This document shows positions 3,246 to 60,939 of a stretch of 64,000 bases of DNA, one piece after another. The stretch lies in contig JANJGN010000071.1 in assembly GCA_026770705.1 (NCBI GenBank), positions 2,046,001 through 2,110,000 on the forward strand. The letters run 5' to 3'. The notes below the pieces were generated by a model. The model searched no databases. It was given only the letters and a program-made list of their open reading frames with translations, and was not told the DNA's origin. The position numbers and the translations under genes are program-made. How positions within the stretch are numbered: the first letter of the stretch is position 1; every line of letters starts with the position of its first letter. The stretch is from Isurus oxyrinchus (taxonomy: Eukaryota).

Positions 3246-3285
3246 ATGATCGGTAAATCTTACTTCCTCCTGTCACTTCTCCAAG
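3246..3285 (+). CDS. Gene A signal-peptide exon (MIGKSYFLLSLLQ-)
   Basis: Acceptor TTTCTCTTTCAG ending 3203, ATG at 3246, phase-1 donor AAG|GTAAT; joins the V exon in frame (VGLSQEWK). Confidence 0.8.
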
Positions 3286-4147
3286 GTAATACCATCGTCA
3301 GCTCAGACAGATTTATGGTGAATAGTCTTTGTAAAAGATCATTCTTATTGAGCTCTGATAGGGAACTGATTCAGCAGTGAGGCAGTGTACAAACTCACAC
3401 CAAGTCCCATTCACCCATCACCCCTAAACTATCTGACTCCTGGTCCTACAGCATCTCAAACTTAAAATACACATCTCTTTGTTCAAATGCATCCATTGCC
3501 TCACACTGCGTCCTTATCTCTGTAACCTCCTGCAACTCTCCCAACCAACGTCCCAGATCTCTGTGTTACTCCAATTCCGGCCTCTTGACCATGCCCCGAT
3601 TCCCATCACTCCAATACTGGCGGCCGGGCCTTCAGCTGCCTGGGGCCTGAGCTCTGGAATTCACTCCCTAAACCTCGGCGATGGAGGAGATCAGAGGGTT
3701 TCATTTTACTGAAAACCTCCACGACTACATCACAGCTGCAGTCAGAATAGACAGAGAGTCCAGCCCTTGCACTTCCTGCACAGTTTCACCATAGCAACCA
3801 CAATAAGGAAGTAAACTAACTGAAAGTTAAACCGAAGCCAAAGCAGTCAGTTTAGAGAGATGAGATATTTACACAGTTTCCCTGTGTGTCTTGTAGACAC
3901 TGTGTTGGGTGGAAGACTGGCTTCACTAAACAGGGTCCTGAGGACCATGAGCCAATGTAGAATGAACTTGTCCACTCCTGTGTCCAGGATTCTCTTCTAT
4001 CCATTGTGAAACCTTGGGGAGTTCCATGTGTGTCCTGTAGATGGTCCACACTGCAGCCACTGTGCCCCAGTGATGGAGGGGGTGGATATCAAGTCTAGTG
4101 GATCTACAAACCATCCAGAGTTAAATATTTGATATTTCTCTCCTCAG

Positions 4148-4516
4148 TTGGACTGTCACAAGAGTGGAAAGGTGACACTCCACGAGAGGTGACAGCGCAG
4201 GAAGGTACGTGTGTACAGATTCCATGTCATTACAGTTATCCAGCACATTTGGAAAACCAACCGCGAGGTGGAGTCTGGTTTAATAATGAGAAACAGATTC
4301 CCTGGGCTCCCATTGCCTTTCACTCCAAAGATCACAGTCACGAGTTACCACGGTTCCACAATCGGACCCGGCTTTCTGGAGACCTGAAAGATGGCGACTG
4401 TTCCCTGATTATAAACAACATCAGACGGGAAGATGCAGGACCTTATTTTTTCAGAATAGAATTTGACAATGGTCCGAGCCATAACTATTACCCTGTAACC
4501 CAGCTTCACATTTCTG
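4148..4516 (+). CDS. Gene A Siglec V-set Ig domain exon
   Basis: Siglec hallmarks: CVQIPC, GDLKDGDCSLII, DAGPYFFRIE with the essential F-strand Arg; phase 1-1, CTCAG|...G|GTAAGT. Confidence 0.92.
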
Positions 4517-5201
4517 GTAAGTGCTGTGTTATAATTACTCAACAATTCACATACAACACTCAATGGGAAATAACACAAACTGTGACGTTTACATATTAAC
4601 ACAAAACACAGCTTATTATAACACATTGTCTGATTCTCAATAGCTTCCAGTTCAGTCCTAAAGCAACGTCTAATACTCACTTTAATATCAATGATGAAAA
4701 GCATTAACTGTATTATCAGGTTACCATTCCCATCAATCTCTCCTGTCCTGTTTAAAAGTCTGACTTATCGATAAAAGAAAGATGTGCATTTCTGCTGCGC
4801 AATTTACCACCTCAGGAGGATCCAAATCCCTTCACAGCCAATGACATTATTCCTGAATTGTAGTCACAGATGTAAAACACAGCAGGCAGTTTGTGCACAG
4901 CAAGATCCAACAAACCACAAGGTGATAAATCACCCAGATCACTGAGGAAATGAGAAGCCAGTGAACTCAAACCTCTGGTCTGATGAAGAGTCATACGGAC
5001 TCGAAACGTTAACCCTGTCTTCCTCTCCACTGATACTGTCAGACCTGCTGAGTCTTTCCAGCAATTTTTGTTTTTGTTTCAGATTTCCAGCATTCGCAGT
5101 ATTCTGCTTTTAACTCCAATCTCTGGTCTGAGCCTCTTCTCTCATCCAGTGTTCTCAATTCACATGTCTCGGAGTGAAAGGATCCATTCTCCGTGTGTTA
5201 G

Positions 5202-5278
5202 ATTTCACAGATAAACCCATGATATTCATCAGAAAACCTGGAAATATTGCACTTGGCTCCCTCACCCAAGTCATTTAA
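5202..5278 (+). pseudogene. Gene A domain-2 (C2-set) exon remnant, truncated by retroelement DNA
   Basis: TTAG|ATTTCACAGATAAACCCATGATATTC matches the start of gene B exon 23840. Homology stops at 5227 and the frame reaches TAA at 5276-5278. Confidence 0.8.
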
Positions 5279-6380
5279 ATATATCGTGAATAGTTAGGTC
5301 CCAAGCACGGATCCCTGTGGTATACCACTAGTCACCGCCTGCCACTCAGATAAAGACTAATTTATTCTGACCCTCTGTTTCCTGTCTGTCGACCAATTCT
5401 CAATCCATGCCTGTAAATTACCCCCAATCCCATGGGCTTTAATGTTGCCCACTAGCCTCTTATGTGGGACCTTATCAAAAGCCTTCTTGAAATCTAAAAA
5501 CACCACATCCACTGGTTATCCCTTATCTATTCCACAAGTTACATCCTCAAAATCTCCAGTAGATTAGTTAAGCATGGTTTTCCTTTCATTAACCCATGCT
5601 GACTTTGTCTAATCCCATTAAAGCTTTCCAAGCGTTCCATTAGCACACCTTATATAATAGGCTCTAGCGTTTTCCCCATGTTAGACTAACTGGTCTGTAA
5701 TTCCCAGTTTTTTTCTCTCCCTTCTATTTTAAATAGTGGGGTTACAATTGCCACCCTCCAATCTATAGGAACTGCTCCAGAGCCTGTAGAATTTTGGAGG
5801 ATGACCACCAGTGCTTCCAATATTTCCAGGGTCACTTCCGTTAGTCTCTGGGATGTAGATTTTCAGGCCCTGGGGACTGTTCAACCTTTAACCCATTAAT
5901 TTCTCCAGGTTCATTTTTTAAAACTAATCCTGATTATCTTCAATTCCTCCCTCTCACTAGACACTTGGTTCCCTAACATTCCTGGGAAATTATTTGTGTC
6001 CTCTTTTGTGAAGACAGAACCAAAATATATGTTCAGTTCTTCTGCCATTTCTTTGTTTCTCATTAGAATTTCCCCCATTTCTGACTGCAAGGAACCTACA
6101 TCGGTCACTGCTAATCTTTCTCTCTTCACATATTTATAGAAGCTTTTACAGTCGGTTTTTACGTTCCCTGCAAGTTTACTCCCATGTTCCATTTTCCCCT
6201 TCTTGATCAATCTTTTTGTCCACTTTTGCTGAATTCTAAACTGCTCCCAATCCTCGGCATTGCTGCTTCCCCTGGCAATTTTATGTCTCCTCTCTGGATC
6301 TAATACTATCCCTAATTTCTTTTGTAAGCCCTGGTTGAGCACCATTTCCTGACTTATTTTTACGCCAGACAGAAATGGAT
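5250..6380 (-). mobile_element. CR1-like LINE ORF2 fragment
   Basis: ORF 5911..6345 (KSFYKYVKRER...EMAEELNIYFGSVFTKED) is CR1 ORF2-like; the DFxKAFDKVPH-type RT motif lies on the minus strand near 5460-5500. Confidence 0.85.
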
Positions 6381-6489
6381 AATTGTTGTAGCAAATGCTT
6401 CAGCCTTATCTTTTGCCCTGATGTGCTGGGCTCCCCCTTCATTGAGAATGGGGATATTTGTGGATTCCCCTCCTCCAGTGAGTTAATTG

Positions 6490-7500
6490 TCCGTTACCAT
6501 TGGATACGAGCATTAGTGGACTGTATTAGACCATTATCGAAAATGAAAGCTGGACTCCAGTATGGCCTCACTATGATGGATATGACAACTCGATTTCCAG
6601 AGACCATCCCTTTAGGAACAATTACAGCTAAAGTAGTAATAGGGAAGTTAACCCAATTTTTTACCCATTATGGATTACCGCTGGAGATCCAGTCAGATCA
6701 AGGTTCCATCTCTATGTCTTAAAATTTTCCGAACATAATGAGTAATTTGGGTATAAAACAGTTAAAGTCCACAGCATATCATCCATAGACACAGGGATCT
6801 TTAGAGAGGGACCAACAAACCCTCAAAACAATGATTGAAGCTATTGTCATGATCTCCCCATGACTGGGACAAAGGACTGGATTTCTTGTATTTCCCACAT
6901 GAGATTCACCAACTGAATCGGCAGGTTTTAGTCTTTTTGGAATAACTTATGGACACGAGATAAGAGGCTGTTTGAAATACATCAAAGAAAGATATTCCGG
7001 ACAGAGGGATGAATCCTCTATTTCAGATGATGTGTCCATGTTTCAGGAACGGCTCATGGGAGCCTCCAAAGTGGCACAAGAACATCTTATAGTTTCTCAA
7101 ACAGAAATGAAGGAATGGGGCAGACAGGCAAGCTGTGACCCGAACATCACAACCAGGGGGATGACGTGTTAGTATCATTGCCTTGGCAGGGGGAGCCTCT
7201 GAAAGCGCGGTTCAGTGGTCCCCACAAGGTAATTAGGAGGGTTGGTCAAGTAAATTATTTGATAGACACCCCAGATTGTAGAATAAAGAATCGGCTGTGA
7301 CACATCAATATGTTAAAACGATACCATCGTAGGGAGGGAGGTAAAAAGGAGCAGGTATTTCATTTCCAACCAGATTCTGCATAGATTACAGAAAGGTTAA
7401 TGCAGCAATAAAACCAGATTCCTACCCAATCCCCCGTTTAGAAGATGGTATTGACGAGGTTGGCAGTGCCATGTTCCTTACTGAGATAAATTTGTTGGTA
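6490..7500 (+). mobile_element. Degenerate Gypsy LTR-retrotransposon pol fragment, integrase followed by RT (Gmr1-like order)
   Basis: rve core (LTMMDMTTRFPETIPL...YGLPLEIQSDQGS), then RT motif RFCIDYRKVNAAIKPDSYPIPRLEDGIDEVG at ~7372-7500. Confidence 0.75.
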
Positions 7501-8354
7501 GTGGGGGGTGTTCGTGACCATCAGTGTGGAAGGGTTAGGTTTACAGGTTACACAGACCAGACACACACCAACAGACACACACACACATGTAAGCACGCAC
7601 ATTCACACGCACACGCGCACACACACAACACACACACGCACACACACACACGCACACACACACACACACACACACGTAAGCACGCGCATNNNNNNNNNNN
7701 NNNNNNNNNNNNNNNNNNNNNNNNNNNNNNNNNNNNNNNNNNNNNNNNNNNNNNNNNNNNNNNNNNNNNNNNNNNNNNNNNNNNNNNNNNNNNNNNNNNN
7801 NNNNNNNNNNNNNNNNNNNNNNNNNNNNNNNNNNNNNNNNNNNNNNNNNNNNNNNNNNNNNNNNNNNNNNNNNNNNNNNNNNNNNNNNNNNNNNNNNNNN
7901 NNNNNNNNNNNNNNNNNNNNNNNNNNNNNNNNNNNNNNNCACTCAGTGCTGCACTGGAGTCTCGGTGTCAGCTCCGATTCTGTGTTGAAGGAAGGTAAAC
8001 TCCGGATCAACAAGACCCTGAATTGGATGGAGCAACCTCCTTAACAGAGAATTGTAGATTTACCCCTCAGTGCTCCATCGATCAAATATAATTCATTGCC
8101 TGTCAAGCCCTTGGGGACATCCTGAGGATGTGAAAGGCAGTTTCTTTAAATCTGGATGGGCAGCGTCTCTGGTGGGAGAATGCTCCTGCAGTGTGACAGT
8201 TTACATAGGCAGTGCCCATTGTAAATGTGACATAGGAACTTATCTTGAGAGAAGGTGCCTAGAAATGCACACAGGCATCAGTTACAGCGAGATGATACAG
8301 GAAGTTTTGCTGTGCACTGTGTTTGCTCACATTAAAATCTTTATATATTTTTAG

Positions 8355-8636
8355 ATGCACCACAGAATCTCTCAATTACTTCTCTTGATATGATTAACGC
8401 TTCATCGATCAATATAATTGCGGGGAATTCTGCAGTGATAATCTGCTCTGTCGAGAGCTTCCCAGCTTCTAACCTGACGTGGCGACATCTTAATGTCCAA
8501 ATGAACAGAACAAGTTCCAACAATGAGCTGTGGTTGGTGATTCCTCACGTTACATCCAGGGACACTGGAGATTATCAGTGTGTGGCAGAGAATGAACATG
8601 GAGCAGTGGAGGGGTTCATAACCATCACTGTGGAAT
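8355..8636 (+). CDS. Gene A C2-set Ig exon (same family as the amplified gene B exon)
   Basis: 282 nt, phase 1-1; DAPQNLSIT...ICSVESFPASNLTW...DTGDYQCVAENEHG; four N-X-S/T sequons. Confidence 0.88.
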
Positions 8637-8689
8637 GTGAGTGTGGAGATACATTTGTTTGTTTGTTGTCTCCGTGGTCTCCGTGGAGC

Positions 8690-8965
8690 CATTGGGATCG
8701 TGTTGTTTTTAATCCAGTTTTCTTCAATCCTCGCTCAGTCCACGTTATCCACACATCCAATTTTTCCTCTCCCTTTCTGTTTTTGGTCTCAGTTTCTCCT
8801 TCAATGGTTGTCAGGACAAGGCTGTCAGGTCTTCGTTTCCAATCTCCATACTTGACGACCTTTCTCTCTCTAACTGTCCTGAACAACCCTTTTAATGGCT
8901 GAACGTCTCCTCTTGATCTAAGCCACTCATTGGTCTTTCTGTCCATCCAGCTGATTCTGAGCATC
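8690..8965 (-). mobile_element. RTE-like LINE 3' fragment
   Basis: Minus-strand peptide LRISWMDRKTNEWL...RERKVVKYGDWKRRPDSLVLTTIEG resembles an RTE ORF C-terminus; partly shared with gene B (33090-33285). Confidence 0.55.
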
Positions 8966-10020
8966 TGGCAGCATCTGTGGAGAGAAAGACAGGGTTAGCG
9001 TTTGGAGTCCGTAAGACTCCTCTTCAGAGCTAAAGGGAAGTAGACATGTGGTGAAATATATCCTGTCTAAGGGGGGGCGATGGGACAGGTGGAGCTGGAT
9101 AGAAAACCAGCGATAGGTGGAGGCAATGGAGAGATTGTGAAAAATGTCATAAACAAAAGGTCAAAGGGTTGTTAACAGTGGTGGTATTGGATAAAGGAGG
9201 TGCTAATGGTGACATTAAGCAGAGTGTGATAATGGGCGGACCAGGGTAAGCACTCTGGAAAGAGACAGATGGCCCTCGTGGGGGTGTGGCAGGGGGAGGG
9301 GACGGTGGAGGGAATAAAGATCGAAAATAGACTAAAATCTGCGGATAAAACAATCAATAAAAATGGAAATGAATTTCAAATAATAATAATAAAAATAAGT
9401 GGAAAACAGTTAACAAAAAAAACAATTAAAATGAATACATTAAAAAAGGGTTCAAAAAGCAGTGAAGATCGAGGAGAGAGTTCATGATCTGAAATTGTTG
9501 AATTCAATATTCAGTCGGGAAGGCTGTAAAGTGCCAGGTCGGAAGATGAGGTGCTGTTCCTCCAGTTTGTGTTGGGCTTCACTGGAACAATGCAGCAGGC
9601 CAAGGACGGACATGTGGGCATGAGAGCAGGGTGGGGTGTTAAAATGGCAAGCGACAGGGAGGTCTGGGTCGTTCTTGCAGACAGGGTGAAGGTGTTCATC
9701 AGAGCGATCACCCAGTCTGTGTTTGGTGTCTCCAATGTAGAGGAGACCACACTGGGAGCAGTGAATGCAGTAGATTATATTGAAGGAAGTCTGCATGAAG
9801 CGCTGCTTCACCTGGAAGGAGTGTTTGGGTCATTGGACAGTGAGGGGGGAGGAAGTAAAGGGGCAGGTGTTGCACCTTCTGTAAATACATGGGAAGATGT
9901 CATCGGAGAGGGTTGAGGTGCTAGGGGTGATGGAGGAGTGGACCAGGGTGTCCTGGAGGGAATGATCCCTGTGGAATGCCAACGGGGTGGGGGTGAAGGG
10001 AAGATGCTTTTGATGGTGGT
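8966..10020 (-). mobile_element. Penelope-like element (GIY-YIG endonuclease remnant)
   Basis: ORF 9482..9811: NIIYCIHCSQCGLLYIGDTK...PVACHFN...LEEQHLIFRPGTLQPSRLNIEF, the characteristic Penelope C-terminus. Confidence 0.85.
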
Positions 10021-10164
10021 CAGATTTTGTCCAAAGGAGGTGAGAAATGAGGGAGGGAATTCCAGAGGTTAGGATCCAGGCAGCTGAAGGCACGGCTGCC
10101 AATGGTGGAGCGATAGGAATCGGGGGAAGGTCAAGAGGCTGGAATTGGAGGTGCATCGAGATCT

Positions 10165-10695
10165 CGGAGGGTTGTAGAGGCTGGAGGAGTTTACAGAGAT
10201 AAGGAAGGTTGTAGGGGCTGGAGGAGGTTACAGAGATAGGGAGGGTTGTAGGGGCTGGAGGAGGTTACAGAGATAGGGAGTGTTGTAGGGGCTGGATGAG
10301 GTTACAGAGATAGTGAGGGTTGAAGGGTCTGGAGGAGGTTACAGAGATAGGGAGGGTTGTAGAGGCTGGAGGAGTTTACAGAGATAGGGAGGGTTGTGGG
10401 GGCTGGAGGAGGTAACAGAGTTAGGGAGGGTTGTGGGGGCTGGAGGAGGTTACAGAGATAGAGAGGGTTGTGGGGGCTGGAGGAGGTTACATAGATAGGG
10501 AGGGGTGTAGGGATGGAAGGTGGTTGCGGAGTTAGCGAGTTTTAAAGGGGCTGTAGGAGGTTACAGGGATAGGGACGGTTGTGGGGGTTGGAGGAGGTTA
10601 CAGAGATAGGGAGGGTTATAGGTGCTGAAGGAGGTTACAGAGATAGGAAGGGTTATAGGGGCTGGAGGAGGTAACAGAGATAGGGAGGGGGTAAG
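10165..10695. repeat. 37-bp minisatellite (GAGGGTTGTAGGGGCTGGAGGAGGTTACAGAGATAGG) inside a LINE-like fragment
   Basis: About 14 tandem copies; same unit at 53990-54240 and, inverted, at 56893-57710. Confidence 0.9.
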
Positions 10696-10999
10696 GAGGG
10701 ATTAGAAACGATGTGAATTTTAAAATTGTGGCTTTGTCGGACCGGGAGCCAGTGTAGCTCAGTGACCAACAGGGAGTGATGTGTGAACAGGACTCGGTGT
10801 GAGTTAGGACATGGGGACAGCAGAGTTTAGGATGAGCTGATGTTTATGGAGAGTGGAAGATGGGAGGTCGGGCAGGAGAGTGTTGGGATAGTTGAGTGCA
10901 GAGGTAACAAAGGCAGGAATGAGTGTTTCAGTGTGAAGATTCTATCTTACGCTCTAACTTTGCTATGACGTTGTCTCATTGTTGTCCTTACCTCCTCAG

Positions 11000-11293
11000 A
11001 TAAGCCGGAGATTTCCCAGCAGTCGGAGTGCACTCGGAGATCAGAGGGGGTCACCTGCGTCTGTGTGACCACCTCCAACCCACCGGGAGACCTCACCTGG
11101 CACCTGCCCAGTGCCAACATCAGTGGTAACCAAACACACGGAGATTTTGTGTCGTGGCAGGTCAGAGATGGGCATCTGGTGACTGGTTCCCTCACCCTGA
11201 TGAGACCTCAGGATGAGGGGGGAGTGATTGCATCCTGCTCGGTTCAAAACCCACATGGGGAAGCCATGTTCAAGGTGTATCTGTGGGTCAAAG
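11000..11293 (+). CDS. Gene A membrane-proximal C2-set exon, MAG domain-5-like
   Basis: YKPEISQQSECTRRSEGVTCVCVTTSNPPGDLTWHLPSANIS...VTGSLTL...ASCSVQNPHG; the C-x8-CxC...SNP pattern of MAG d5 and last domains of CD33-related Siglecs; 294 nt, phase 1-1. Confidence 0.85.
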
Positions 11294-11639
11294 GTGAGAG
11301 ACTCGCTCAGGATCGATCTCCACTCAGCTGGATTGATCCCTAAACTCGAGAATTCCCTCCCTCAACCTCTCCACCTCTCTCTCTACTTCCTCTAAGATGC
11401 TCTTTACAACTGACCCCTTTGACCAAGCTTTGAATCACCTGACCTCATGTGACAATGGCAACACTTGGTCAAATTGGAGCCAGGCCGTTCAGGGGGTGAT
11501 GTCAGGAAGCACTTCTTCACACAAAGGGGAGTGGAAATCTGGAACCCTCTCCCCCAGATAAGCTGCTTCATTGGGTGCAAGACAGAAAGCTTTGACAAAA
11601 TGTCCTTTCTCAGCAATACTCAGGTTCTCCTCCCAAACG

Positions 11640-11900
11640 ACGAAATATTATATATAAACATTACATAGATTACATCGAGAAACATTATATATAAATATTA
11701 CATAGATTACATCGAGAAATATTATATATAAATATTACATAGATTACATTGATAAATATTATATATAAATATTACATAGATTACATCGAGAAAAATTATA
11801 TATAAATGTTACATATATTACATTGCTAAATATTATACATTAATGTTATAGGGATCACATTGATAAATATATATAAATGTTAAATTGATTACATCGAAAT
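11640..11900. repeat. AT-rich ~37-bp minisatellite (AAATATTATATATAAATATTACATAGATTACATCGAG)
   Basis: About 7 tandem copies. Confidence 0.85.
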
Positions 11901-12395
11901 GCAAGACTCGATAACCAATGAAGCAGTTTCGAAGTGAGCTCACTGTTGTCATGTAGGAAACGCAACAGTTGATTTGTACACAGCAAGATCCCACAAACAA
12001 CAGCGTGAAATTGAGGTGATAATTGATTATTTTAGTGAGGTTATTTGATACATATATATATAGAAATTACATATATAATGTGGGTCACTAATGACCCTTA
12101 AGGGAGGGAAACCTGTCCATTTTAACAGGTCTGGGTGTATATGTGACTCCAGTCTCAGACACCATCATGGTTAACTCTTACCTGCCCTCTGAACTGGTCT
12201 CCCAGTTTGGGACAAACCAGTGGTTCAGGAGGAAGACTCCCCACCAGCTTCTCAAGGGGAAACTAGGGATGGACAATAAATGTCAGCATTGCCCGAGAAT
12301 GAGTATTTAAACACTGAGTGAGTGTATCGCTTCTCGAGATACATTGGAGCATCATTGTAAACCTGTAGTGCAGTAATTAATGGCTGTTTTTACAG

Positions 12396-12492
12396 GTAGA
12401 GACTCCAGTAAATGGACAGTAGGATTGTTCACGGCTGGGATCATGTTGAGTGTTTTCCTGGCTGGAATCTTCATCTTCATCTGTGTGAGAAA
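12396..12492 (+). CDS. Gene A transmembrane exon (GRDSSKWTVGLFTAGIMLSVFLAGIFIFICVRK)
   Basis: TTTTTACAG| and AA|GTAAGT; hydrophobic helix with no charged residue; near-identical exon at 33834-33930. Confidence 0.88.
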
Positions 12493-12639
12493 GTAAGTCT
12501 GAAGATTTAACTTGATTTTAATATAAACATTTGTTGAGGACTAATTGGACAGTTTTTACAAAGGGCCAGCACAGGCACGATGGGCTGAGTGGCTTCCTCC
12601 TGAGCTGTGAGATTTTAAATTCTTTAATCAAATGTGACT

Positions 12640-13085
12640 GTCACTGGGGAGGCCGTTATTAACTTGCCCATCTCTAATTGCCCCTTGAGAAGGTGGTGGT
12701 GAGCTGCCTTCTTGACCCGCTGCGGTCCATGTGGTGTAGGTACACCCACAGTGCTGTTAGAGAGGGAGTTCCAGGATGTTAACCCAGCGACAGTGAAGGA
12801 ACGGTGATATATTTCCAAGTCAGGATGGTGAGTGACTTGGAGGGGAACTTCCAGGTGGTGGTGTTCCCATGTGTCTGCTGCCCTTGTCCTTCTAGATGGT
12901 AGAGGTCGTGGTTTTGGAAGGTGCTGTTGAAGGAGTCTTGCTGAGTTGCTGCAGTGCATCTTGTAGATGGTACACACACTGCTGCCACTGTGTGTTCATG
13001 GTGGAGGGAGTGAATGTTTAATGTGGTGGATGGGGTGTCGATCAATCGGGCTGCTTTGTTGTTGATGGTGTCGAGATTCTAGATT
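12640..13085 (-). mobile_element. CR1-family LINE 3' end
   Basis: Reverse complement of the element end at 38230-38590 (peptides HGNTTTWKFPSKSLTILTWKYI shared). Confidence 0.75.
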
Positions 13086-13215
13086 CTGTGCTTTGTGCAG
13101 TAGTGATTTAAAGAGACAGTCCCAGTCATTGGTGTAAGTTACAGTGGGCTCTGTGTCTGTGCTGCACTGACTCTCTGCTATATGATAACCACAGTGTGAT
13201 ATTGTGTTATTGCAG

Positions 13216-13297
13216 GAGAAGGACAGCAATGGAGGAGAGAGTTTCAGGGACCAGAGACATTGCATTGACCCTCAGTTCACTCTCTGTGAACCACCAG
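13216..13297 (+). CDS. Gene A cytoplasmic exon 1 (RRTAMEERVSGTRDIALTLSSLSVNHQ)
   Basis: TTGCAG| and CAG|GTACAG, phase 2 to 0; conserved in gene B (34624-34705). Confidence 0.75.
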
Positions 13298-50077: not shown

Positions 50078-51245
50078 ATGGGAGAGGTCGGTCTGATATT
50101 GATCTTCATCAGCTTGCTGCAAGGTACAAATTCATTACTGATCGGAACTCAGGGAATTGGATTCTTTCCTGGAGTGAGGAAGTGAACATTTAATTTTAGA
50201 GAACAGGGTTAGTGATCACACAGAGAGTGAGTGAATAGCGAGTCAGAGAATGTAGCAAAAGAAAAAGCCTCATACGGACTCGAAACACCAACTCTGTTTC
50301 TCTCTCCACAGATGCTGTCAGACCTGCTGAGTTTTTCCAGCATTTTCTGTTTGTGCATCAGAGAGCTTGTTTCAATAGGAATGACAGTGCATTTATATAG
50401 CACCTTTAATGCAGTAAAACATCCTTATTGCTTCACAGGATTCCCCCACAAGGGGTAACATCCCCTCAGCATCCACCCTGTCAAACCCCCCACCACCTCA
50501 GAATCTTATATGTTTCAATAAGATCACCTCTCATTCTTCTAAACTCCAATGGATACAGGGCCCAACCTGCTCAACATTTCCTCATAAGACAAACCCCCTT
50601 CATCCCAGGAATCAGCCCAGTGATCCTCCTCTGAGCTGCCTCCAATGCAGAGTCTATCCCTCCCTAAGTAAGGAGACCAGAACTGTACACACTGCTCCTG
50701 ATACAATCTCACCAACGCCCTGTACAGTTGTAGCAAGACTTCCCTCCTTTTATACTCCATCCCTTTGCAATAAAGGCCAACATTCCACTTGCCTTCCTCA
50801 TTCCGTGCTGTTCCTGAATGCTGACTTTCTGTGATTCATGCACAAGGACACCCAGATCCCTCTGTACCGCATTCTGCTGACTCTCTCCATTGAAGTAATA
50901 TTCTGCTTTTTGATGTCCTGTCTCTTCCCTTGATGCCTTTCAGGAGTGACGTCAGAGGGATGGTCTATGAAGGCGCTGCCTCGGAGGGCCATCAGCAGCT
51001 CTTGTGTGGTTATTCCGTGTAGCTTTGACTTTCCTTCCCACTCTTACACAGCACTGCACGGAGCTTGGTATAAATATTGGTATAGATGGAAATATACCAC
51101 CACATACACCAAAGATCCCAATTATGGGGTGGCCACATTCGTGGGACGTGCTAAAATAATCGGCGACTTGGAAGGGAAGAATTGTTCGGTGAGGATTGAC
51201 AGTCTCAGAGCTGAAGACAGTGACGTGTATTGCACCCAATTCTAA
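50078..51245 (+). pseudogene. Siglec-like gene C (Siglec-1/CD22-type V domain), truncated
   Basis: Signal exon 50078-50123 (MGEVGLILIFISLLQ, phase 1). V exon from 50944: GVTSEGWSMK...SCVVIPCSFDFP...GDLEGKNCSVRIDSLRAEDSDVY, then Gypsy sequence and TAA at 51243-51245. Confidence 0.8.
50450..50890 (-). mobile_element. CR1-like LINE fragment
   Basis: ORF 50539..50760 MEYKRREVLLQLYRALVRLYQEQCVQFWSPYL. Confidence 0.8.
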
Positions 51246-51632
51246 ATCTTTTCACCAATTAGTCGTCCTCATGAAGATGTGTTTTCAGCTGAAGCCGTGG
51301 GTAATAATGCAGAGGTTTAAGTTTAACTCCAGAGTAAGGGCCCAGGGAGAGTCCATCGCAACCTATACACTGAAGTGGAAGCAGGTGACTGAGCACTGGG
51401 ACCTCGGAGACACACTCAATGACATGTTGCGGGGCCGATTGGTTTGTGTCGTTCACCCCAACGCCATTCAGAGCCGTTTACTCGCAGAAGCCGACATCGA
51501 TTTGAAGCGCACCATGGAAATAGCGCCAGGCATGGAAAGTGCTGGGAGAGACTGGCGGGATTTACAGGATGTACAACATGGCACCAGTCCTCAGCTGGGA
51601 CAGGAACCAACCACCGGGCGTGAGGCTCAAAC

Positions 51633-51665
<33 letters not shown>

Positions 51666-52400
51666 CCGCCAAGCGAGAGACAGTCTCTGCCGCTCCAGAA
51701 ACTAAAAGGCTTCGTGGGAGTATTTCAGCAGCAACTCCGAAGTTGGTCTGTTCTCGATGTGGGGGGCATTGAGCACGTACTGGACACCTGCAGGTTCAAG
51801 GGAGCAGAATGCCATCACTGCCACAAGAAAGGGGTGGGTAATAAAGCAATGCAGGGTGAAATCGAGACAGCCCATCAGGCAGTGCACCAACATGATGGAA
51901 GTGAATAATATCACAGAGCCTGAAGCTGCTGATACCGATGTCTATTCCCTGTCCAATGTCACAGTGGTAAAAACTGAACCTATAACCATCACAACCCAAG
52001 TGAATGGGCAGCCACTAGTAATGGGGCAGATACGGGAGCCTCAGACACAGTGGTGGAAGAGCCCACATTTAAACAGCTAAATGAAGGAACCCAGACGCTG
52101 AATTTAGAGCCAACAATGGATCAGCTGAAGACACACACTGGAGAATCCATACAGGGAAAGGACCTCATCCCAGTACCTGTGTCCTACAGGCAGCAGACAG
52201 CCCAGCTTCCAGTGATCATAGCGACAGGTGAGGGCCCTAGTCTTCTGGGCCGAGACTGGTTCCAGAAAACCAAGCTCAGCTGCTCTGAAATGTTTCACTG
52301 GAGGAGTTGCTGAGTTGCTGGGGGAATATGAGAGTGTATCTCGGAATGAGTTTGAAGAATTGAAGCATCCTCACAGGCTGCAAGTGTCCCTCAGGTCAGA
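51230..52400 (+). mobile_element. Gypsy LTR-retrotransposon gag-protease remnant
   Basis: VIMQRFKFNSRVRAQGESIATY...LNDMLRGRLVC...IQSRLLAE; zinc-knuckle remnants CSRCGG and CHHCHKKG; protease end GEGPSLLGRDW. Confidence 0.85.
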
Positions 52401-55319
52401 GTTGGTTCCACTGGAAAATCCTGAAGAGAAAGAAAGCGAATTCTGTGCCGCTCTGAGCAAACTGAAGAAACAGTTGGCAGGGAAGACCCAACCATGTCCA
52501 ATGTTCCAGGAGGAAGGCAAGAGATACAAGGAAGAGACTGAAGAGCTGAAGATTCAGCTGAATGAAACCAAAGAGGCAGTTACAGTATCACAACAATTTT
52601 ACAGTGCAGAAGGAGGCCATTCAGCCCCTCGAGCCTGTTACACAGGAACAGGAGGAGGCCCATTCAGCCCCATTGAGCCTGTTACACAGAAAAAGGACGA
52701 GGCCCATTCAGCCACTGATGCCCGTTACACAGGAACAGGAGGAGGCCATTCAGCCCCTTGTAGGGTGTGGTGGTGTGTGTCAGCTTCACCTGCGACTTCT
52801 GAGCCGTCTGAATCACTCCCACTCCCTGGGTTCTAGACCTTGGACTTATTCGGGGCTTGTCACAAAGTGCAGCAGACAACTGGTTTTGGTGCAAGACAAA
52901 AACTGAGTTTATTGAAGTCACAAATGAACTTCTAACATTAGGATGACACTGAGATTATACAGACTTACAAAGTACACTGAGTTAAGAATGGGGAACACAC
53001 GGCATAACGAGGGAGAATCACGCTACTAATGCCCTTACCCTTGTCCCACCCCCCATCCCTAACTAAATTGCACTAGGAGAGGTCAGGGGTCACGCTCACC
53101 AACCCAGGGTTCCTCGACAGTTGGAAATCCAGCCAGGTAAGCCGGTTGCAGTTTTGGGGGACGCTCTTTGTGTCCTCTGGGGCCTGTCATCCCCACGTGG
53201 TCCTGGTCTGTGGAATCTGTGAAGGGTCTTCAGTTGGGTGGAGGGCGCGGTTGTGGGTGGTCGATCTTCATGGAGGGCAGCGGTTGTGGCCTTGTTGTCT
53301 TCGGTTGAGCCTGCCACCCCGTGCCCCTCACCGTGATGTTGCCTGTGGGCCTGCAAACCTCCAGATCTCCTTGCTTAAACTCTGTTTCAACCGCTCCCAA
53401 CTGCTCACTGCCCTGTGTCAGCTTTCAACACTGCAACCCTTCTGCTGGCTGGTTTCTCTCCCAACTGACTGCCCAGTTATACTGCCTTTCGAGTTTCTTA
53501 TCGCAATCCAAATCAAGGTTCGTTCTTTGTTTGTCTTTGGTGGGCTTCCCCAGGTGATTGATGTCTCGTTGTTGTTAATGGGCTCGCATGATGTTTATCA
53601 TTGTCTTCCTGCCCAGTAACTCGTTTTGAACTGAAAGCCATTGTATGTGTGGAGTATTGATGGGTTCGCATAATTAAATTGCCGGCCTCAGAAGTTAGGA
53701 GCGATTATTGATGCAAGATTTAGATGGGCTTCAGTTGCGTGTGAAGTGAAGTCTTTCTCTGGGTTGATTGTATTAAAGGGAAGAATGCGTATTCTGTCTC
53801 CTCTCGTTGTCTGGTTTCAGGCCAAACATTCCACACTGCTCTCAATAAGCCCGGACATGTGCAGCCCCAGGCCTTCATGGGCCCAGCCTCCTGTCTGCAG
53901 GGTTTTCCACTTAACTCAGCAGTTTAAAGGGGCAAAAGTGATATCCTTGTTGATGATATGGAAAATGTGGGAATTTTGAGAACCCTTCAAGAGATAGGGA
54001 GGGTTACAGGGGCTGGAGGAGGTTACAGGTATAGGGAGGGGTGTAGGGGTTGAAGGTGGTTACAGAGATGGGGAGGGTTGTGGGGGTTGGAGGTGGTTAC
54101 AGATATAGGGAGGGGTGTAGGGGTTGAAGGTGGTTACAGAGATGGGGAGGATTGTAGAGGCAGGTGGAGGCTGCCTTAGGGAGGGTTGTAGGGGCTGGAG
54201 GAAAGGGACAGAGAGAGGAGGTTACAGATATAGGGAGGGAGACAGTCAGAGAGAGAGCCTCCAGGAGATAGAGAGCGATAGAGAGATTGAGAGACAGACA
54301 GAGACTGAGAGAGGGAGAAGAGAGAAGGAGAGTGAGAGAGAGAGAGAACAAGTGTGAAAGATGGTGGAAGGGAAGAGTGGGGAGGTGTTGGCCTGATGGT
54401 ATTTTCACTGGACCAGTAATCCAGAGACCCAGTGTAATGCTCCTGGGACCCTGGTTAGAATCTCACCACAGCAGTTGGTGGAATTTGAACTCAATAAAAA
54501 CCTGGAATTAAAAGTCCGATGATGACCAGGAAACCATTGCTGATTCTTGTATTTGGGTCACAAATGCCCTTTAGGGAGGGAAATCTGCTGTCCTTACCTG
54601 GTCTGGCCTACATGTGACTCCAGACCCACAGCAATGTGGTTCACTTTTAAAAAGTGGCCTCTGAACAAGGGCAATTAGGGTTGGGCAATAAATGCTGGCC
54701 TGGGCAGTGATGTCCACATCACATGAAAGAATGAAATAAAAGGACAGAGAGGGACAGACAGAGTCGAGAGACACCCAGAATGAAAAAAACACAGTAAACA
54801 CTGGAAAATAAACATTCTGGTCTGATCTGGTCTTGTATACCTTCAAATGGAACACCAGTAAAACAGGGAAATAAGAGTACTGGGCCAAACTGTTAGAGAG
54901 GGGGACATTTAGAGAGAGAGAGAGAGAGAGAAAGAGGGAGACACTGAAAGAGATAAGGACAAGGAAAGAAAGAGTGAGAGAGAGAGACAGACAGAGACAC
55001 ACAAAGAAGTAGAAAGAAAGTGATAGAGATGAAGCAGGAGAGAATGAGGAGAAAGATAGATAGATAGAGAGAGAGGATGGTAGAGAAAGAGAACGAGAGG
55101 AAAAGAGACAAAGGCAGAATGTGATGGAACACTGAATCCTTGTCTATGCGTTTTGAAATCCAGCCCAGAACTATCATTGGAAGATTCAGCGAGTGTCCAG
55201 TACAGGGGACCCAGCCCAACCTTCTCATCCTGACCTTCCCAGTGGGGCTGAAGAGGGCAGAGAGGAAACCTTCCTCTGTTATTCTGTTGTCGAATAAACA
55301 CAACAATTCTGGAACTCTG

Positions 55320-56530: not shown

Positions 56531-56597
56531 GGAAGCTCCTCTAGTTACAAACCAAAGCATCAAAGCAGAGCCAGAAGATCAGAAGAGACAGGCAGAG

Positions 56598-56690
56598 ATG
56601 GGAAGCTCCCAGATGAAATGGCGACTTGTCTTGTTCACTCTGACTTTGCTGCTCTCCCTGCAGCTGAGTCACTTCTTCTCCTTGTCGAGG
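56598..56690 (+). CDS. hamp: Hepcidin-like exon 1, signal peptide (MGSSQMKWRLVLFTLTLLLSLQLSHFFSLSR)
   Basis: 31 codons, hydrophobic core, phase-0 donor AGG|GTAAGC, 77 nt downstream of the TATA box. Confidence 0.8.
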
Positions 56691-56892
56691 GTAAGCTAAG
56701 AGATGTCCCTCTGGGTGAGGTGTTTCTTGCACATGACTCTACATCTACCACCCAGATAGACTGGTCACTTCCGCAGTTTGATATTATTATGTTCGTGCCT
56801 TTAATATTGTCGCCCTCTATGAATTTAACATCATTTCCTTCTGTCATTTCCCCTGAAATTCTCATTCTTGTTTTCAATCCCTCCTCAGCGAC

Positions 56893-57710
56893 TCCCTATC
56901 TCTGTAACCTCCTCCAGCCCCTACAACCCTCCCTATCTCTGTAAACTCCTCCAGCCCCTACAACCCTCCCTATCTCTGTAACCTCCTCCAGCCGCTACAA
57001 CCCTCCCTATATCTGTAACCTCCTCCAGCCCCTACACCCCTCCCTATCTCTGTAACCTCCTCCAGCCCCTACAACTGTCCCTATCTCTGTTACCTCCTCC
57101 AGCCCCTACAACACTCCCTATCTCCGTAACCTCCTCCAGCCCCTACAACCCTCCCTATCTCTGTAACCTCCTCCAGCCCCTATAAACCTCCCTATCTCTG
57201 TAACCTCCCCCAGGCCCCACAACCCTCATGATCACTGTAACCTCCTCTAGACCCTACAACCCTCCCTATCTCTGTAACCTCCTCCAGACCCTACAACCCT
57301 CCCTATCTCTGTAACCTCCTCCAGGCCCCACGACCCTCAGAATCACTGTAACCTCCTCCAGCCCCTACAATGCTCATGAACTCTATAACGTCCTCTCCAC
57401 ACTATAACTCTCCCTATCTCTGTAACCTACTGTGGCCCCTACAGCAGTATCTATTTTGGTAACCTCCTCCAGCCTCTACAACCCTCCTTACCTCTGTAAC
57501 CTCCTCCAGCCCCCACAACCCGCCCCATCTCTTTAACCTCCTACAGCCCCTACTCACCTCCCTATCTCTGTAACCTCCTACAGCCCCTACAACCTTCCCT
57601 ATCTCTGTCACCTCCTACAGCCTCTAGAACCCTCCATATCTCTGTTACCTCCTACAGCCTCTACAACCCTCCCTATCTCTGTAACCTCCTCCAGCCGGAA
57701 CAACCCTACC
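56893..57710. repeat. 37-bp minisatellite, about 22 copies, in hepcidin-like intron 1
   Basis: CCTATCTCTGTAACCTCCTCCAGCCCCTACAACCCTC unit. Confidence 0.9.
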
Positions 57711-57771
57711 TAAATCTCTGGTCTGAATCTCACTCCAGGGAATTCAGTCCCATAACGTCGGTCAACACTCC

Positions 57772-58430
57772 GTGCTGAGGGAGTGCTGCACTGTCAGAGG
57801 GTCAGTAGTGTGGAAGTGTTGCACTATTGGAGGGACAGTACTGAGTGAGTGCTATACTGTCGGAGGTCAGTACTGAGGGAGTGCTGCTGTGTCGGAGGGT
57901 CAGTACTGAGGGAGCGCTGCACTGACGGAGGGACAATACTGTGGGAGTGCAGCACTATCGAAGGGTTAGTACTGAGGGAGTGCTGCTGTGTCGAAGGGTT
58001 AGTACTGAAATAGAGCTGCACTGACGGAGGGACAGTACTGAGGGAGCGCAGCACTATCGAAGGGTTAATACTAAGGGAGTGCTGCAGTGTCAAAGGGTTA
58101 GTACTGAGGGAGCACAACAATGTTGAATGAGACATTAAACCGAGTCCCCCGTCTGCCCTCTCGGGCGGGTGTGAAAGATCCCACAGCCACTATTTGGAGG
58201 AAGAGCAGGGGGTGTTCTCCCCGGTGTCCTGGGACCAATATTTATCCCTCACCCAACATCACCAAAAACAGATGATCTAGGCCATGATCACATTGCTATT
58301 TGTGGGATCTTGCTGTGCACAAATCAGCTGCCACATTTCCTACAGTGTGAGTGCACTTCAAAAACATCCTTCAGTGGCTGTGAAATGCTTTGGGATGTGG
58401 TGAAAGGCGTTAGAGAAATGCAAGTCTGTC
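57772..58430 (+). mobile_element. Deu-domain (SacSINE1/AmnSINE1-type) SINE with tandemly amplified 33-bp segment; similar copies at 60120-60745 (+) and 44600-44895 (-)
   Basis: AGTACTGAGGGAGYGCTGCACTGTCGGAGG array continues into ATGAGACATTAAACCGAG...AAAGATCCCA...GAAGAGCAGGGG, which I recognise from memory as Deu-SINE core sequence. Confidence 0.6.
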
Positions 58431-58526
58431 CTCCTCCCCCTCTCTCTCCTGTACCTCTCTCTCTCTCTCTCCCTCTCCCTCAATCCTCCTCTCACTTTCT
58501 CCCTGATAAATTCTTTCTTTTTGCAG

Positions 58527-58583
58527 GTTGACACTGCTTTAGGTTCTTCGACGATTGAGAAATCTGTGGATTCCCCGGACACG
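58527..58583 (+). CDS. hamp: Hepcidin-like exon 2, acidic pro-region (VDTALGSSTIEKSVDSPDT)
   Basis: Strong acceptor TTCTTTCTTTTTGCAG|, 57 nt, donor ACG|GTAGGT, phase 0-0; size like the 60-nt human HAMP exon 2. Confidence 0.7.
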
Positions 58584-60823
58584 GTAGGTGGAAATTCATT
58601 CCTTATTTTAAGGTTTCTCCCTGCTCGTTTCTTCCACAGAAAGTTTTCTGATTTCAAGCTGATTTCAGTGGCAGTCTGTCTCGGTTATACTCAGGAGGCA
58701 TGTTTGAAATCGAGCCCCCCCCCCCCCCCCGCCCAACTTTTTTTGCAAAGCTGGGAAGAGGCAATTCCAAGGAAGTGAACATATCCCCACAGGAATTTTA
58801 AATGTAACCCACGCCGGGAATAGTGAGAGGGAGACTGATCCAGCCTGGGAGTGGGTTAAAGAGAGGCTGGGAGTCGAGAGTCGGAGAGAGGGATGGAATG
58901 GGGGAGGGAGGGATTGGAAGAGAGAGACACAGAGTGGGACGGGGAGGGGTGAAAGGGAAAGAACATAGGTGGGAGAGAGTGACAGAGGGAGAAATTAAAG
59001 AGATGCAGAGTGAGGGAAAGTGAAAAGGGAAGAGAGATTGTCCAAGAGAGAGAAATTAACAGGGAAGGGAGAGTTACAGAGTGAGCGAAAGTTACAAAAA
59101 TAGTTTGAGAGAGAGGGAGAGATACAGAGTGGGAGAATGAGACAGGGAGAGAGAGGGAGAGAGACAGGAAAAGGGAGAGAGGAGAGAAAGATTGGGAGAG
59201 AGGGCAATTGAGAGGAAGAGTAGGAGAGAGAGAGACAGGGAGAGGAGGAGTGGATGAGAGGAAGAGAGAGAGAGATATGGAGCAGGAGAACACCTCCTCC
59301 GGTCCCGATGTTCCTCCAAAATCTCTGACATTACTGCATCTCCCGGGTCCCCCTGATTCCCATCGCTCCACCATTGGTGGCCGTGCCTTCAGCTGCCTGG
59401 GGCCCTGAGCTCCGGAATACCCTCCCTTAACCTCTCTGCCTCTCTCTCTCTCTCTCCTTTAAGACGCTCCTTAAAAACTGACATCTTTGACAAGCTTTTG
59501 GTCACCTAACCCTAATATCTCCATATGTGACTCAGTGTTAGACTTCTCTCTGATTTACGTTCCGGTAATGTGGGCTGGGACATTTTGCAATGTCAGAGGC
59601 GCTGTGTAAATGCAAGTTGTGAGTGTTATGTGGAAGGGAGACCCCAGGCGGCAGTCAGTGCCAGAGACTGGAGTCATTGTGTGCAGACCATATCTAATCT
59701 CTCCGAATGCACAATCGGTTTGACTGTCAGCCAAAGCACTTTTGATATTTGATCCTTCTAACTGTTTATAACCAGGCCTACATCATACACCGAGAGGCTG
59801 GTTAATCAACAGACACCTTAGAGGATCGAGTGAAAGACAAAGAGGACTTGCATTTCTCTAGCGCCTTCCAACACATCAGGACGTCCCAAAGTGTTTCGCA
59901 GACAATCAAGTGCTTTTTTTCTTTCATGTGAGGTCACTGATGTACTGTGGGAAAAGAATCAGCCATTGGCGCACAGTAAGATCCCACAGACAGCAGCATG
60001 ATAATGACCAGCGCGCTCCCAGTACTTGCACTGCAAATGTCAGTTCAGGATGTGTGCTCGATTCTCTGCAACTCTCAGCTCTGAGTTAAAAGGACCACCA
60101 GGCATAATTGAGAAATTACCGAGCTGTCGGAGGGTCAGTACCGGCGGGGGGGCAGGACAGTCGGAGGGTCAGTACTGAGGGGGTGCTGCATTGTCAGACG
60201 GTCAGTCTTGGAGTGCTGCACTGTCAGAGGGTCAGTACCGGCGGGGGACTGCACAGTCGGAGGGTCAGTACTGAGGGGGTGCTGCATTGTCAGACGGTCA
60301 GTACTGAGGGAGTGCTGCACAGTCGGAGGGTCAGTACTGAGGGGGTGCTGCACTGTTGAAGGCGCTGTCTTTCAGATGAGATGTTAAACTGAGACAACAT
60401 CTGCCCTCTCAGATGGATGTAGAGGATTCCATGGCCACAATTTAAATGAAGTGCGTCAGGAGTTGGGGGGTATGTGTGGAGGGGGTGGTGGGGGGTGGAT
60501 GGGATGCAGTTATGTCTGCTTTCCTGGGGCAAACATTTATCCCTCAACTGACATTGGTAAAAAACTGAAAATCGGGGCCATTATCACATTTCTGTTTGTG
60601 GGATCTTGCTGTGCGTGAATTGCCTGCTGCGTTTCCTACATTACAGCGGTGAGCTCACTTCAGAAAAAGTCCTTCCTTCAGCTGTGGAACACTTTGGGCC
60701 ATCCTGAGGAGGGGAAAGGCGCTATAGAAATGCGCCATCCTCCTTCCAATGACGCGCCTGATTGAAATGATGCCTTCTTTCTTTCCGGAATGTTCTCACC
60801 TATTGTGCTCCTGCTTTTCCAAG

Positions 60824-60939
60824 GCTCCTTGCTGCAGCGCCAGAACAGAATGAGCAGACAGCAGCTCTGCAGATTCTGCTGTCACTGCTGTAATTGGAGA
60901 GGACCAAATGAGACTTGTGGTTTCTGCTGTAGATATTAG
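60824..60939 (+). CDS. hamp: Hepcidin-like exon 3: convertase site and 8-Cys mature peptide (SLLQ-RQNR-MSRQQLCRFCCHCCNWRGPNETCGFCCRY)
   Basis: Diagnostic C-xx-CC-x-CC-xn-C-G-x-CC-xx-stop pattern; TAG at 60937-60939; acceptor either AAG|60824 or CAG|60838. Confidence 0.92.

Follow-up and report, generated by a model that had tools for sequence, protein, structure and literature searches.

An array of at least 13 Mb in the shark Isurus oxyrinchus combines Siglec-like receptor genes with co-amplified, derived hepcidin genes

This work describes a 64-kb window (the whole stretch of DNA analyzed) that is one slice of an array of at least 13 Mb in the genome of the shark Isurus oxyrinchus. The main feature of the locus is the scale of this array together with its co-amplified, derived hepcidin. 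We consider it probable that the window is one unit of an array shaped by segmental duplication, inversion, and gene conversion, likely recent, which carries more than 100 Siglec-like V exons and 89 derived hepcidins predicted to serve host defense rather than to act as the ferroportin hormone. The window is an amplified derivative of the HAMP-FFAR neighborhood, not the ancestral neighborhood itself. Our literature search returned no published description of the cluster; these expansions could already be tabulated among the gene families in the supplements of shark genome papers.

Scale and copy number of the array

The V exon of gene B, one of three Siglec-like genes in the window, gave at least 150 genome matches on 15 contigs (83 to 100% identity). 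Hepcidin exon 3 is present in 89 amplified copies, 38 on the + strand and 51 on the − strand, with a median spacing of 103 to 114 kb. These copies comprise 86 distinct haplotypes over 841 bp, with a mean divergence of 2.0%, and encode 42 peptides. Exon-1-only hepcidin remnants are also present in the array. No N was found in any of 100 cluster loci of 10 kb. Short-read DNA contigs over hepcidin exon 1, a rough gauge in which depth does not equal copy number, reached a depth of 1780 in run X3 versus 15 to 38 for rare contigs, and 1340 versus 14 in run X11, from another organism. An assembly artifact on the scale of the whole array was rejected in view of the deep short-read contigs and the 86 haplotypes.

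Haplotype redundancy may nonetheless have raised the hepcidin count by up to twofold. It is possible, if on the doubtful side, that uncollapsed haplotypes inflate the count and that the haploid number lies nearer 45 than 89. All 14 hepcidin-bearing contigs are pieces of 0.2 to 4.2 Mb, only 11 of 89 copies share a contig with their nearest neighbor, and the depth ratio of 1780/38 would correspond to ∼47 copies. Four cross-contig pairs (8 copies) are identical over the 841 bp, and so some copies may be alleles. However, the median nearest-neighbor distance is 5 to 6 differences per 841 bp, one-to-one colinear pairing of copies is not evident, and contig C52 alone carries 30 copies (C71 carries 20).

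Siglec-like genes and their genomic neighborhood

The original prediction placed three Siglec-like genes, the 3′ flank of a fourth, and a hepcidin gene in the window, all co-oriented. The genes, the flank, and their shared + strand were confirmed within the window, but the co-orientation is local only: the next gene downstream lies on the − strand, and array hepcidins occur on both strands. The flank (433..847, +) belongs to a truncated V-D2-half-D3 gene that ends ∼2.2 kb upstream of the window; the flank sequence is cluster specific, with 26 matches in 504 kb of contig C71 and none in 600 kb of contig C34. Gene A (3246..14778, +) comprises a leader (3246-3285), a V exon with the essential Arg (4148-4516), D3 (8355-8636), a d5-like exon (11000-11293), and transmembrane (12396-12492), cytoplasmic (13216-13297), and tail (14530-14778) exons. 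Its D2 survives as a 25-nt remnant, with the rest replaced by retroelement debris (5202..7690, +) that includes LINE-like open reading frame (ORF) fragments and an integrase core match below the cutoff (E 4e-4). When the D2 remnant is skipped, a 470-aa open model results; its tail has LYANPQ at the proximal tyrosine, which is not an ITIM, leaving TEYAQI as the sole motif.

Gene B (19150..36343, +) has a leader (19150-19189), a V exon with the essential Arg (22616-22981), D2 (23840-24136), and transmembrane (33834-33930), cytoplasmic (34624-34705), and tail exons; the d5-like exon is absent. Its stalk is encoded by a tandem D3 array (24356..33034, +) of seven intact 282-nt phase-1 exons (starting at 25125, 26118, 27147, 28240, 29310, 30571, and 31622), one internally deleted copy, and one fragment. 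The tail exon (36095..36342, +) contains an ITIM (LLYANI) and TEYTQI, both out of frame through a 1-nt deletion. The description of genes A and B as combining D2, a d5-like domain, an ITIM, and TEYxxI is thus a composite, as D2 and a proximal ITIM are missing from gene A, while gene B has no d5-like exon and its ITIM falls outside the reading frame. Gene C (50078..∼51233, +) consists of a leader (50078-50123) and a C-type V exon from 50944, cut just before the essential Arg position by a degenerate LTR-retrotransposon-like insertion (51234..52600, +; weak aspartyl-protease match, E 0.007).

Membership of these genes in the Siglec family, as opposed to an origin outside it, was borne out by sequence matches. 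Genes A and B score above the cutoff for Pfam V-set and Ig_CD22, and the 18 best PDB matches of the V domain are all Siglecs. The essential F-strand Arg, located by alignment with Siglec-5 and sialoadhesin, is present in 23 of 25 V exons in the 504 kb. At motif level, the V domain (CxxxPC and DCSL) and D2 both have Cys residues that line up with those of MAG in the pattern for the B-E intrasheet and V-to-D2 disulfides. The predicted MAG-type layout also held at the level of the family: the alignment between a white-shark homologue and MAG spans all of d1-d5 (E 1.8e-58), and the d5-like exon matches MAG (E 3.6e-11). On sequence grounds, however, the family does not qualify as orthologous to MAG (Siglec-4), being multicopy (well over a hundred variable copies), fast evolving, and ITIM bearing, with V scores to MAG no higher than those to other Siglecs.

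Variation among the Siglec copies is concentrated in the C-C′ region of the V domain and extends to the tandem-D3 stalk length and the type of tail. The pN is 0.100 for V versus 0.015 for D2 and 0.028 for D3, indicating faster change in V than in the C2 domains; V exons overall have a pN/pS of 0.64. A proximal ITIM and distal ITIM-like motif in frame, found in neither gene A nor gene B, occur in paralogues: among the best 150 genome matches of the tail exon, 141 have the full 82-aa frame, and the ITIM/ITIM-like consensus is in frame in 28 of 30 tail loci read. An intact ITIM tail is therefore present in about 140 paralogues, although 12 of 20 tails in the 504 kb are of an ITIM-less type. Homologues occur across sharks and rays (76 proteins), and elasmobranch proteins automatically annotated as "MAG-like," "Siglec-13," or "CD22-like" are members of this homologous set. 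An elasmobranch V-domain tree, built by a quick method from 102 rows by 121 columns and leaving 43 of 99 forks open, contains lineage-specific expansions, including a ray clade with a support of 99. The outliers of an Ig_CD22 family search on contigs C1037 and C2274 group with other elasmobranch Siglec-like V domains; this search, in which 150 of 810 matches were scored, was dominated by cluster copies. Together, the copy lists, truncated copies, and V-domain tree bear out the suggested birth-and-death evolution.

The proposed HAMP/MAG neighborhood was upheld in part. In mammals, FFAR2 adjoins HAMP, USF2, and MAG, as described in part of PMC4453067, and on C34 two conventional hepcidin copies adjoin Siglec-like and FFAR genes (FFAR identity, E 4e-59), as in the mammalian HAMP-FFAR block. 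FFAR was found only on C34, so co-amplification of FFAR with the array was rejected. Descent from a HAMP-FFAR neighborhood is thus traced through C34, but searches around both loci did not turn up MAG, CD22, or USF2. None of these three, nor LSR, was seen in C34 15.02-15.62 Mb; within this region, which has a gap at 15.110 Mb, 150 of 240 candidate ORFs at 15.02-15.42 Mb were scanned and matched only transposon families, and the 164 ORFs at 15.42-15.62 Mb were compared with Siglec-like proteins only. A degenerate 9-codon MAG pattern with 1 mismatch gave no match. USF2 was not recognizable among 87 HLH matches, none on C34 or cluster contigs, and a USF pattern search is uninformative for USF2 because it was blank even for USF1. 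As for the other flanking genes, LSR-family matches lie on C18, C452, and C1620, and FXYD matches are likewise on other contigs.

In the strong form of the original prediction, these shark genes would be orthologs of the ancestor from which the CD33-related Siglecs of mammals arose at the MAG locus. By its title, Cao et al. 2009 has already proposed an ancestral Siglec region held in common. Such orthology would accord with the union of a MAG-collinear five-domain layout and an ITIM/ITIM-like tail in one family, with the location of the family in the HAMP-FFAR block, and with Siglec-5 as the best PDB match of the V domain (62.7 bits). We nevertheless regard it as unlikely: the V scores are nearly level (sialoadhesin 57, CD33 55, and MAG 52 bits), and since the elasmobranch tree contains lineage-specific expansions, a parallel origin fits equally well.

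The amplified hepcidin

The amplified-type hepcidin gene of the window (56613..60939, +) scores 27.9 bits against a cutoff of 27. Its layout is that of a hepcidin, with three exons (56613-56690, 58527-58583, and 60823-60939; +), signal, pro-, and mature regions, a furin-type site, and a 29-aa mature peptide (60850-60936, +) with 8 Cys and an NET sequon. In this copy the usual exon-3 acceptor AG is AA, which was seen in 1 of 88 matched contexts. Across the array, 68 of 89 amplified hepcidins follow a truncated-type C V exon at a distance of 4.4 to 11.4 kb, whereas none of 16 intact-type C V exons has a hepcidin within 20 kb; of 60 fetched hepcidin loci, 23 have the complete junction of gene C with the LTR-like insertion.

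The amplified peptides differ from those of the two C34 copies. The type-1 N-terminal motif Q-S/I-H-L/I-S/A-L (given in part of PMC8502971) is absent from all 42 amplified peptides, whereas C34 peptides read MSHLSI and keep 4 of 6 motif positions. Mature-region DNA differs from that of the C34 gene at 30 of 87 positions (34.5%), against ∼8% in the flanks, with pN and pS equal at 0.345 (14.5 synonymous sites). In-frame amplified peptides have charges of 0 to +4, while the C34 peptide has five Lys; this lower cationic charge does not favor simple membrane killing. Amplified-type hepcidin gave no match in two protein collections and none in the PDB. The basking-shark hepcidin XP_078389754.1 is of the C34 long-loop type, and the amplified type differs from it. 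A long loop unique to the amplified type was rejected, since the peptides of C34 and of the basking shark have the same length of 29 aa.

Hepcidin could be a passenger in the array, with selection or drift having multiplied the Siglec genes and a few hepcidin copies supplying all function. Only 30 of 60 fetched loci are intact; 21 have the exon-1 donor GT changed to TT, 3 lack exon 2, 2 are frameshifted, and 4 have no exon 1 within the fetched stretch. Copies with the TT donor do not cluster on the hepcidin tree (16 changes versus 17 in shuffles), the dead C-type V exon has been amplified equally often (102 truncated-type genome matches), and the window copy itself has a mutated acceptor. On balance we doubt this explanation, since an in-frame set of 8 Cys persists in 84 of 89 copies and the N-glycosylation sequon in 87. 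At 52 loci, amino-acid-changing alleles occupy 4 of 100 sites in the signal and pro- exons, compared with 208 of 1219 noncoding sites (P 2e-4), which argues for constraint; low diversity also reaches into the intron next to exon 2, so this signal may partly reflect conversion. At the same loci, the mature peptide has 19 of 70 such sites (P 2e-5 versus signal/pro), a modest excess over noncoding sequence (P 0.036). The pi of 0.042 for the mature region is nearly equaled by some intron windows (0.037).

Probable expression also speaks against a passenger role. No listed run is recorded as RNA, but four (X2 and X7 to X9, from one sample) are taken to be RNA by guess. In three of these four, splice junctions are seen and exons are covered far more deeply than introns, and several peptide variants occur together in the probable RNA runs (at 60853, 60854, 60883, 60902, and 60922). 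In this one sample, amplified hepcidin is thus probably spliced and abundant. Continued regulation of ferroportin, with the expansion as a dosage change in iron control, would fit the gene structure, furin-type site, and Cys frame shared with the C34 gene and the increase in macrophage iron by some teleost HAMP2 peptides (described in part of PMC6240063), but is improbable given that the type-1 motif partly kept in C34 is missing from every amplified peptide. Judged from these sequence features, amplified hepcidin likely serves host defense rather than iron control.

Proposed origin and comparison with known systems

Our model begins with a conventional HAMP/Siglec-like/FFAR locus of the kind seen on C34. 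A hepcidin duplicate would have landed behind a C-type Siglec gene that the LTR-like insertion had interrupted, and this cassette would have been copied with neighboring A/B-type Siglec genes, the copies of which came to vary as described above. Intact copies are predicted to bind sialylated glycans via the F-strand Arg and to signal through ITIM-recruited phosphatases, and the amplified hepcidins, with no type-1 N terminus but with the 8 Cys and sequon kept, may form a secreted, furin-processed defense peptide family parallel to teleost HAMP2. More tentatively, lamniform sharks may have independently invented a HAMP2-like split, in which a glycosylated, non-ferroportin hepcidin exists in dozens of diversifying, highly expressed copies that recombine with hundreds of Siglec-like receptors as one HAMP-FFAR-derived immune supercluster.

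As in teleost HAMP1/HAMP2 (sea bass, large yellow croaker, and gilthead seabream), described in parts of PMC8502971 and PMC6240063, one conserved type-1 form accompanies many variable copies without the type-1 N terminus, and a conserved signal/pro region accompanies a variable mature peptide. Part of PMC6240063 describes HAMP2 as restricted to Percomorphaceae/Ovalentaria, so the shark expansion is likely independent. Unlike teleost HAMP2, the shark copies are dispersed in a Siglec array and combine a long, sequon-bearing loop with low charge. The Siglec-like genes, in turn, resemble the mammalian CD33-related cluster in having a V set with the F-strand Arg, a C2 stalk, and, in paralogues of genes A and B, an ITIM plus ITIM-like tail. 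Both also have rapidly changing V domains, copies that have lost the Arg, pseudogenes, and traces of conversion. The shark genes differ from the mammalian cluster in number (at least 150 V exons versus 2 to 18 paralogues, a range given in part of 10.1101/051953), in location beside HAMP/FFAR, and in a stalk length that varies via tandem exon copies.

If the proposed explanation is true, this is the largest Siglec-like receptor array that we found described. The presence of about 140 intact shark ITIM tail exons fits badly with the statement in PMC7226832 that inhibitory CD33-related Siglecs are missing from the genomes of fish, and the C34 locus provides a concrete outgroup for the origin of CD33-related Siglecs. 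Type-2 hepcidins have been described as a specialty of spiny-rayed teleosts, and the largest published hepcidin number found is 15 (seabream; part of PMC12255565), compared with 30 to 89 copies here. The amplified and C34 peptide types are open to direct synthesis and comparison. If true, a shark with 30 to 89 separately derived hepcidins would point to repeated splitting of iron control from defense.

Siglec-like genes of the window

Gene A (window 3246-14778) yields an open 470-aa model in the order leader-V-D3-d5-like-TM-tail. Its D2 exon ends after 25 nt at retroelement debris, and its tail carries TEYAQI, with LYANPQ at the position expected of an ITIM. In gene B (19150-36343), V and D2 are followed by a row of seven intact D3 exons in tandem and by TM, and a d5-like exon is absent; a 1-nt deletion puts both LLYANI and TEYTQI out of frame. 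This frameshift is nearly private, since the full 82-aa frame is kept in 141 of the 150 tails scored (at least 150 matches to the ITIM tail, from 408 candidates). The original prediction combined MAG-like D2 and d5 with an ITIM and TEYxxI in both genes, of which the d5-like exon and TEYAQI hold in gene A only. Gene C consists of a leader followed by another type of V exon, which an LTR-like insertion truncates. The predicted fourth Siglec-like gene is real, albeit truncated, and the co-orientation described for the window does not extend to the 504 kb around it, where cluster genes lie in both orientations. A 4-kb purine-rich satellite (45762-49812; 70/142-bp period) lies between genes B and C, a direct duplication (40613-41392 and 42033-42810; 79% identical) has short open frames with no Pfam match, and 33-bp and 37-bp minisatellites are spread over the whole window.

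The 18 best PDB matches of the gene B V exon are all Siglecs (Siglec-5, 63 bits; sialoadhesin, 57; CD33, 55; MAG, 52), with which its essential Arg aligns. D2 is not distinctively MAG-like, as had been claimed, because nectin-4, MAG, and CD33 match it weakly and about equally. The d5-like exon matches MAG at an E value of 3.6e-11, among PDB matches in which no CD33-related chain was long enough to contain a domain of this kind. The d5-like exon is 93 to 96% identical to white-shark proteins and 57 to 81% identical to proteins from other sharks and from rays, which points to a lamniform shark as the source. One white-shark homologue aligns to MAG d1-d5 in a single stretch. A tree of 102 V domains from elasmobranchs, built by a quick method, unites the A/B types in one clade spanning sharks and rays (support, 99); the C type forms a separate clade, and ray-specific and catshark-specific expansions are seen. 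Within the 504 kb, 23 of 25 V exons retain the essential Arg. V-exon variation clusters around the C-C' region, with a pN of 0.100 (0.015 for D2) and an overall V pN/pS of 0.64. Siglec-like genes of two additional, older types, both falling outside the clade that was amplified, occur on C1037 (L071-L075) and C2274 (L078); of the seven Ig exons in the gene on C1037, the last is the same d5-like exon.

Extent of the array and its chromosomal setting

Across the 4.98 Gb searched, the gene B V exon gave at least 150 matches on 15 contigs at 83 to 100% identity (150 scored of 1,084 candidates, all matching), 137 of the 150 being stop-free. C-type V matches numbered 102 truncated and 16 intact, as classed by us from alignment span and frame length. 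The 12 cluster contigs of known length total 13.1 Mb, and all 100 cluster loci inspected (10 kb each) are gap-free. In the unbroken 504 kb that surround the window, 25 A/B V exons and 55 D3 matches occur alongside 20 full tails; C-type V exons, all truncated, number 4 there, and hepcidin exon 3 is present in 3 copies. Twelve of these tails are ITIM-less and eight are ITIM-type, the latter including one with a stop and that of gene B.

Exon organization varies among paralogues. At C71:1927654-1946430 and 2137062-2156289 (C71 being the contig of the window, which spans C71:2046001-2110000), paralogues carry a pair of V exons and a tandem run of nine or ten D3 exons, so that their stalks would be very long and variable. 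At C71:2203606-2215270, there are as many as four tandem repeats of cytoplasmic and tail exons, in which the ITIM-less types come first and the ITIM type last; two tails are joined within a single protein in the white-shark model P0003. A second TM exon type (C34:15178258-15178347; C71:1956783, 1987168, and 2033922) has no recognized tail exon downstream, and one C34 copy carries an Arg within the TM, as activating receptors do.

The probable parent locus of the array, on contig C34 (15.13-15.30 Mb), carries A/B-type genes, FFAR genes, and two conventional hepcidins with an MSHLSI N terminus and intact splice sites; a basking-shark protein is of this hepcidin type. In mammals, FFAR2 lies alongside HAMP, USF2, and MAG (excerpts of PMC4453067). 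Of the proposed HAMP-MAG-CD22-FFAR synteny, C34 shows the linkage of hepcidin, Siglec-like, and FFAR genes; neither 600 kb of C34 nor pattern searches yielded MAG, CD22, or USF2, blanks that weigh little. FFAR-family genes lie at C34:15265312 (matching 151 of 160 query residues and perhaps truncated), 15292772, and 15508816. An LSR-family exon scores equally at C452:60361 and C1620:70134, on two unplaced contigs, possibly representing LSR with haplotype redundancy. A 100-N gap at C34:15,110,243 adjoins Siglec-like genes, and the unplaced cluster contigs could belong there.

The amplified hepcidin family

The search for hepcidin exon 3 yielded 97 candidates, of which 91 matched: 2 on C34 and 89 on 14 cluster contigs (30 on C52 and 20 on C71). 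The 89 copies represent 86 haplotypes over 841 bp, with a mean divergence of 2.0%. Because four identical cross-contig pairs suggest that some copies are allelic redundancy, we give the count as a range of 30 to 89. Exon 1 depth in short-read DNA contigs, a rough check only given that contig depth is not equal to copy number, was 1,780 in run X3 (rare contigs, 15 to 38) and 1,340 in X11, from another organism (14). The exon-1 donor G>T variant appears in short-read DNA contigs of X10.

The amplified copies encode 42 peptide sequences, with eight Cys in frame in 84/89 and NET in 87/89; the type-1 motif, as given in excerpts of PMC8502971, was found in none of the 42. Relative to C34, 30 of the 87 bases that make up the mature region are different, compared to about 8% in the flanks. 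Amino-acid-changing sites exceed non-coding divergence (P about 1e-8), yet pN equals pS; either a burst of change or an old divergence kept while conversion homogenized the flanks would fit. Among 52 loci, the signal/pro exons show constraint (P 2e-4); variability of the mature region exceeds theirs (P 2e-5) but is just slightly above that of non-coding sequence (P 0.036). An argument against function is that no more than 30 of 60 loci are intact throughout; 21 have a TT exon-1 donor, and TT-donor copies are scattered over the hepcidin tree. A truncated C-type V precedes hepcidin within 11.4 kb in 68 of 89 cases, and hepcidin is so placed behind none of the 16 intact C-type exons.

In the window copy (56613-60939), the usual exon-3 acceptor is AA, compared to AG in 85 of 88 matched contexts. 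Splicing at the shifted AG would break the reading frame, which the use of an AG farther downstream or of an alternative donor would preserve. In contigs of three of four probable RNA runs, from one sample, exon bins reach 1e5 to 8e5 versus roughly 10 to 2,000 for non-repeat intron bins. Both splice junctions, exon 2-3 (58583/60823) and exon 1-2, are present in probable RNA contigs together with several peptide variants, and the reads mostly carry alleles of copies other than that of the window. One probable-RNA contig (run X7) joins the gene C leader exon (50096-50123) to hepcidin exon 2 at 58526; with mismatched phases, its product would stop at once. A GGCGCC hexamer at 56379 resembles a BMP-response element and precedes the hepcidin ATG by 234 bp; no STAT or TATA consensus occurs within 2.1 kb.

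Proposed origin and significance

We infer that repeat-rich units, each about 100 kb long, recombined unequally and also underwent inversion and conversion, which multiplied the Siglec-like genes together with a dead-Siglec/LTR/hepcidin cassette. Siglecs sense sialylated glycans and signal through ITIM or ITIM-like tails; by analogy, the receptors would do likewise, with varied specificity and reach. The C34 hepcidins likely continue to control iron, and a role in defence is likely for the amplified type, paralleling the teleost HAMP1/HAMP2 split (excerpts of PMC6240063 and PMC8502971). For the amplified hepcidin as a defence peptide, we consider the case about evenly balanced, because the charge of the peptide is low.

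The observation of a hepcidin-linked Siglec-like cluster is confirmed in part, and its interpretation is supported in part. The conjectured origin of CD33-related Siglecs from such a locus is not a new idea; a common ancestral Siglec region was reportedly proposed by Cao et al. in 2009 (cited in PMC3338513). Inhibitory CD33-related Siglecs are absent from fish according to PMC7226832. Published numbers are up to nine hepcidins in fish (PMC4690011), fifteen in seabream (PMC12255565), and 2 to 18 paralogues in mammalian Siglec clusters (10.1101/051953). In the open-access literature surveyed, supplements apart, no account emerged of an expansion of Siglec or hepcidin genes in sharks. The terms are nowhere in the main text of two Greenland-shark genome papers and receive one general mention in the whale-shark genome paper; passages of PMC13262535 and PMC6288428 add nothing further. 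What stands out is an array of Siglec-like genes spanning multiple megabases, in which a derived hepcidin family has been co-amplified and, judging by probable RNA, is expressed.
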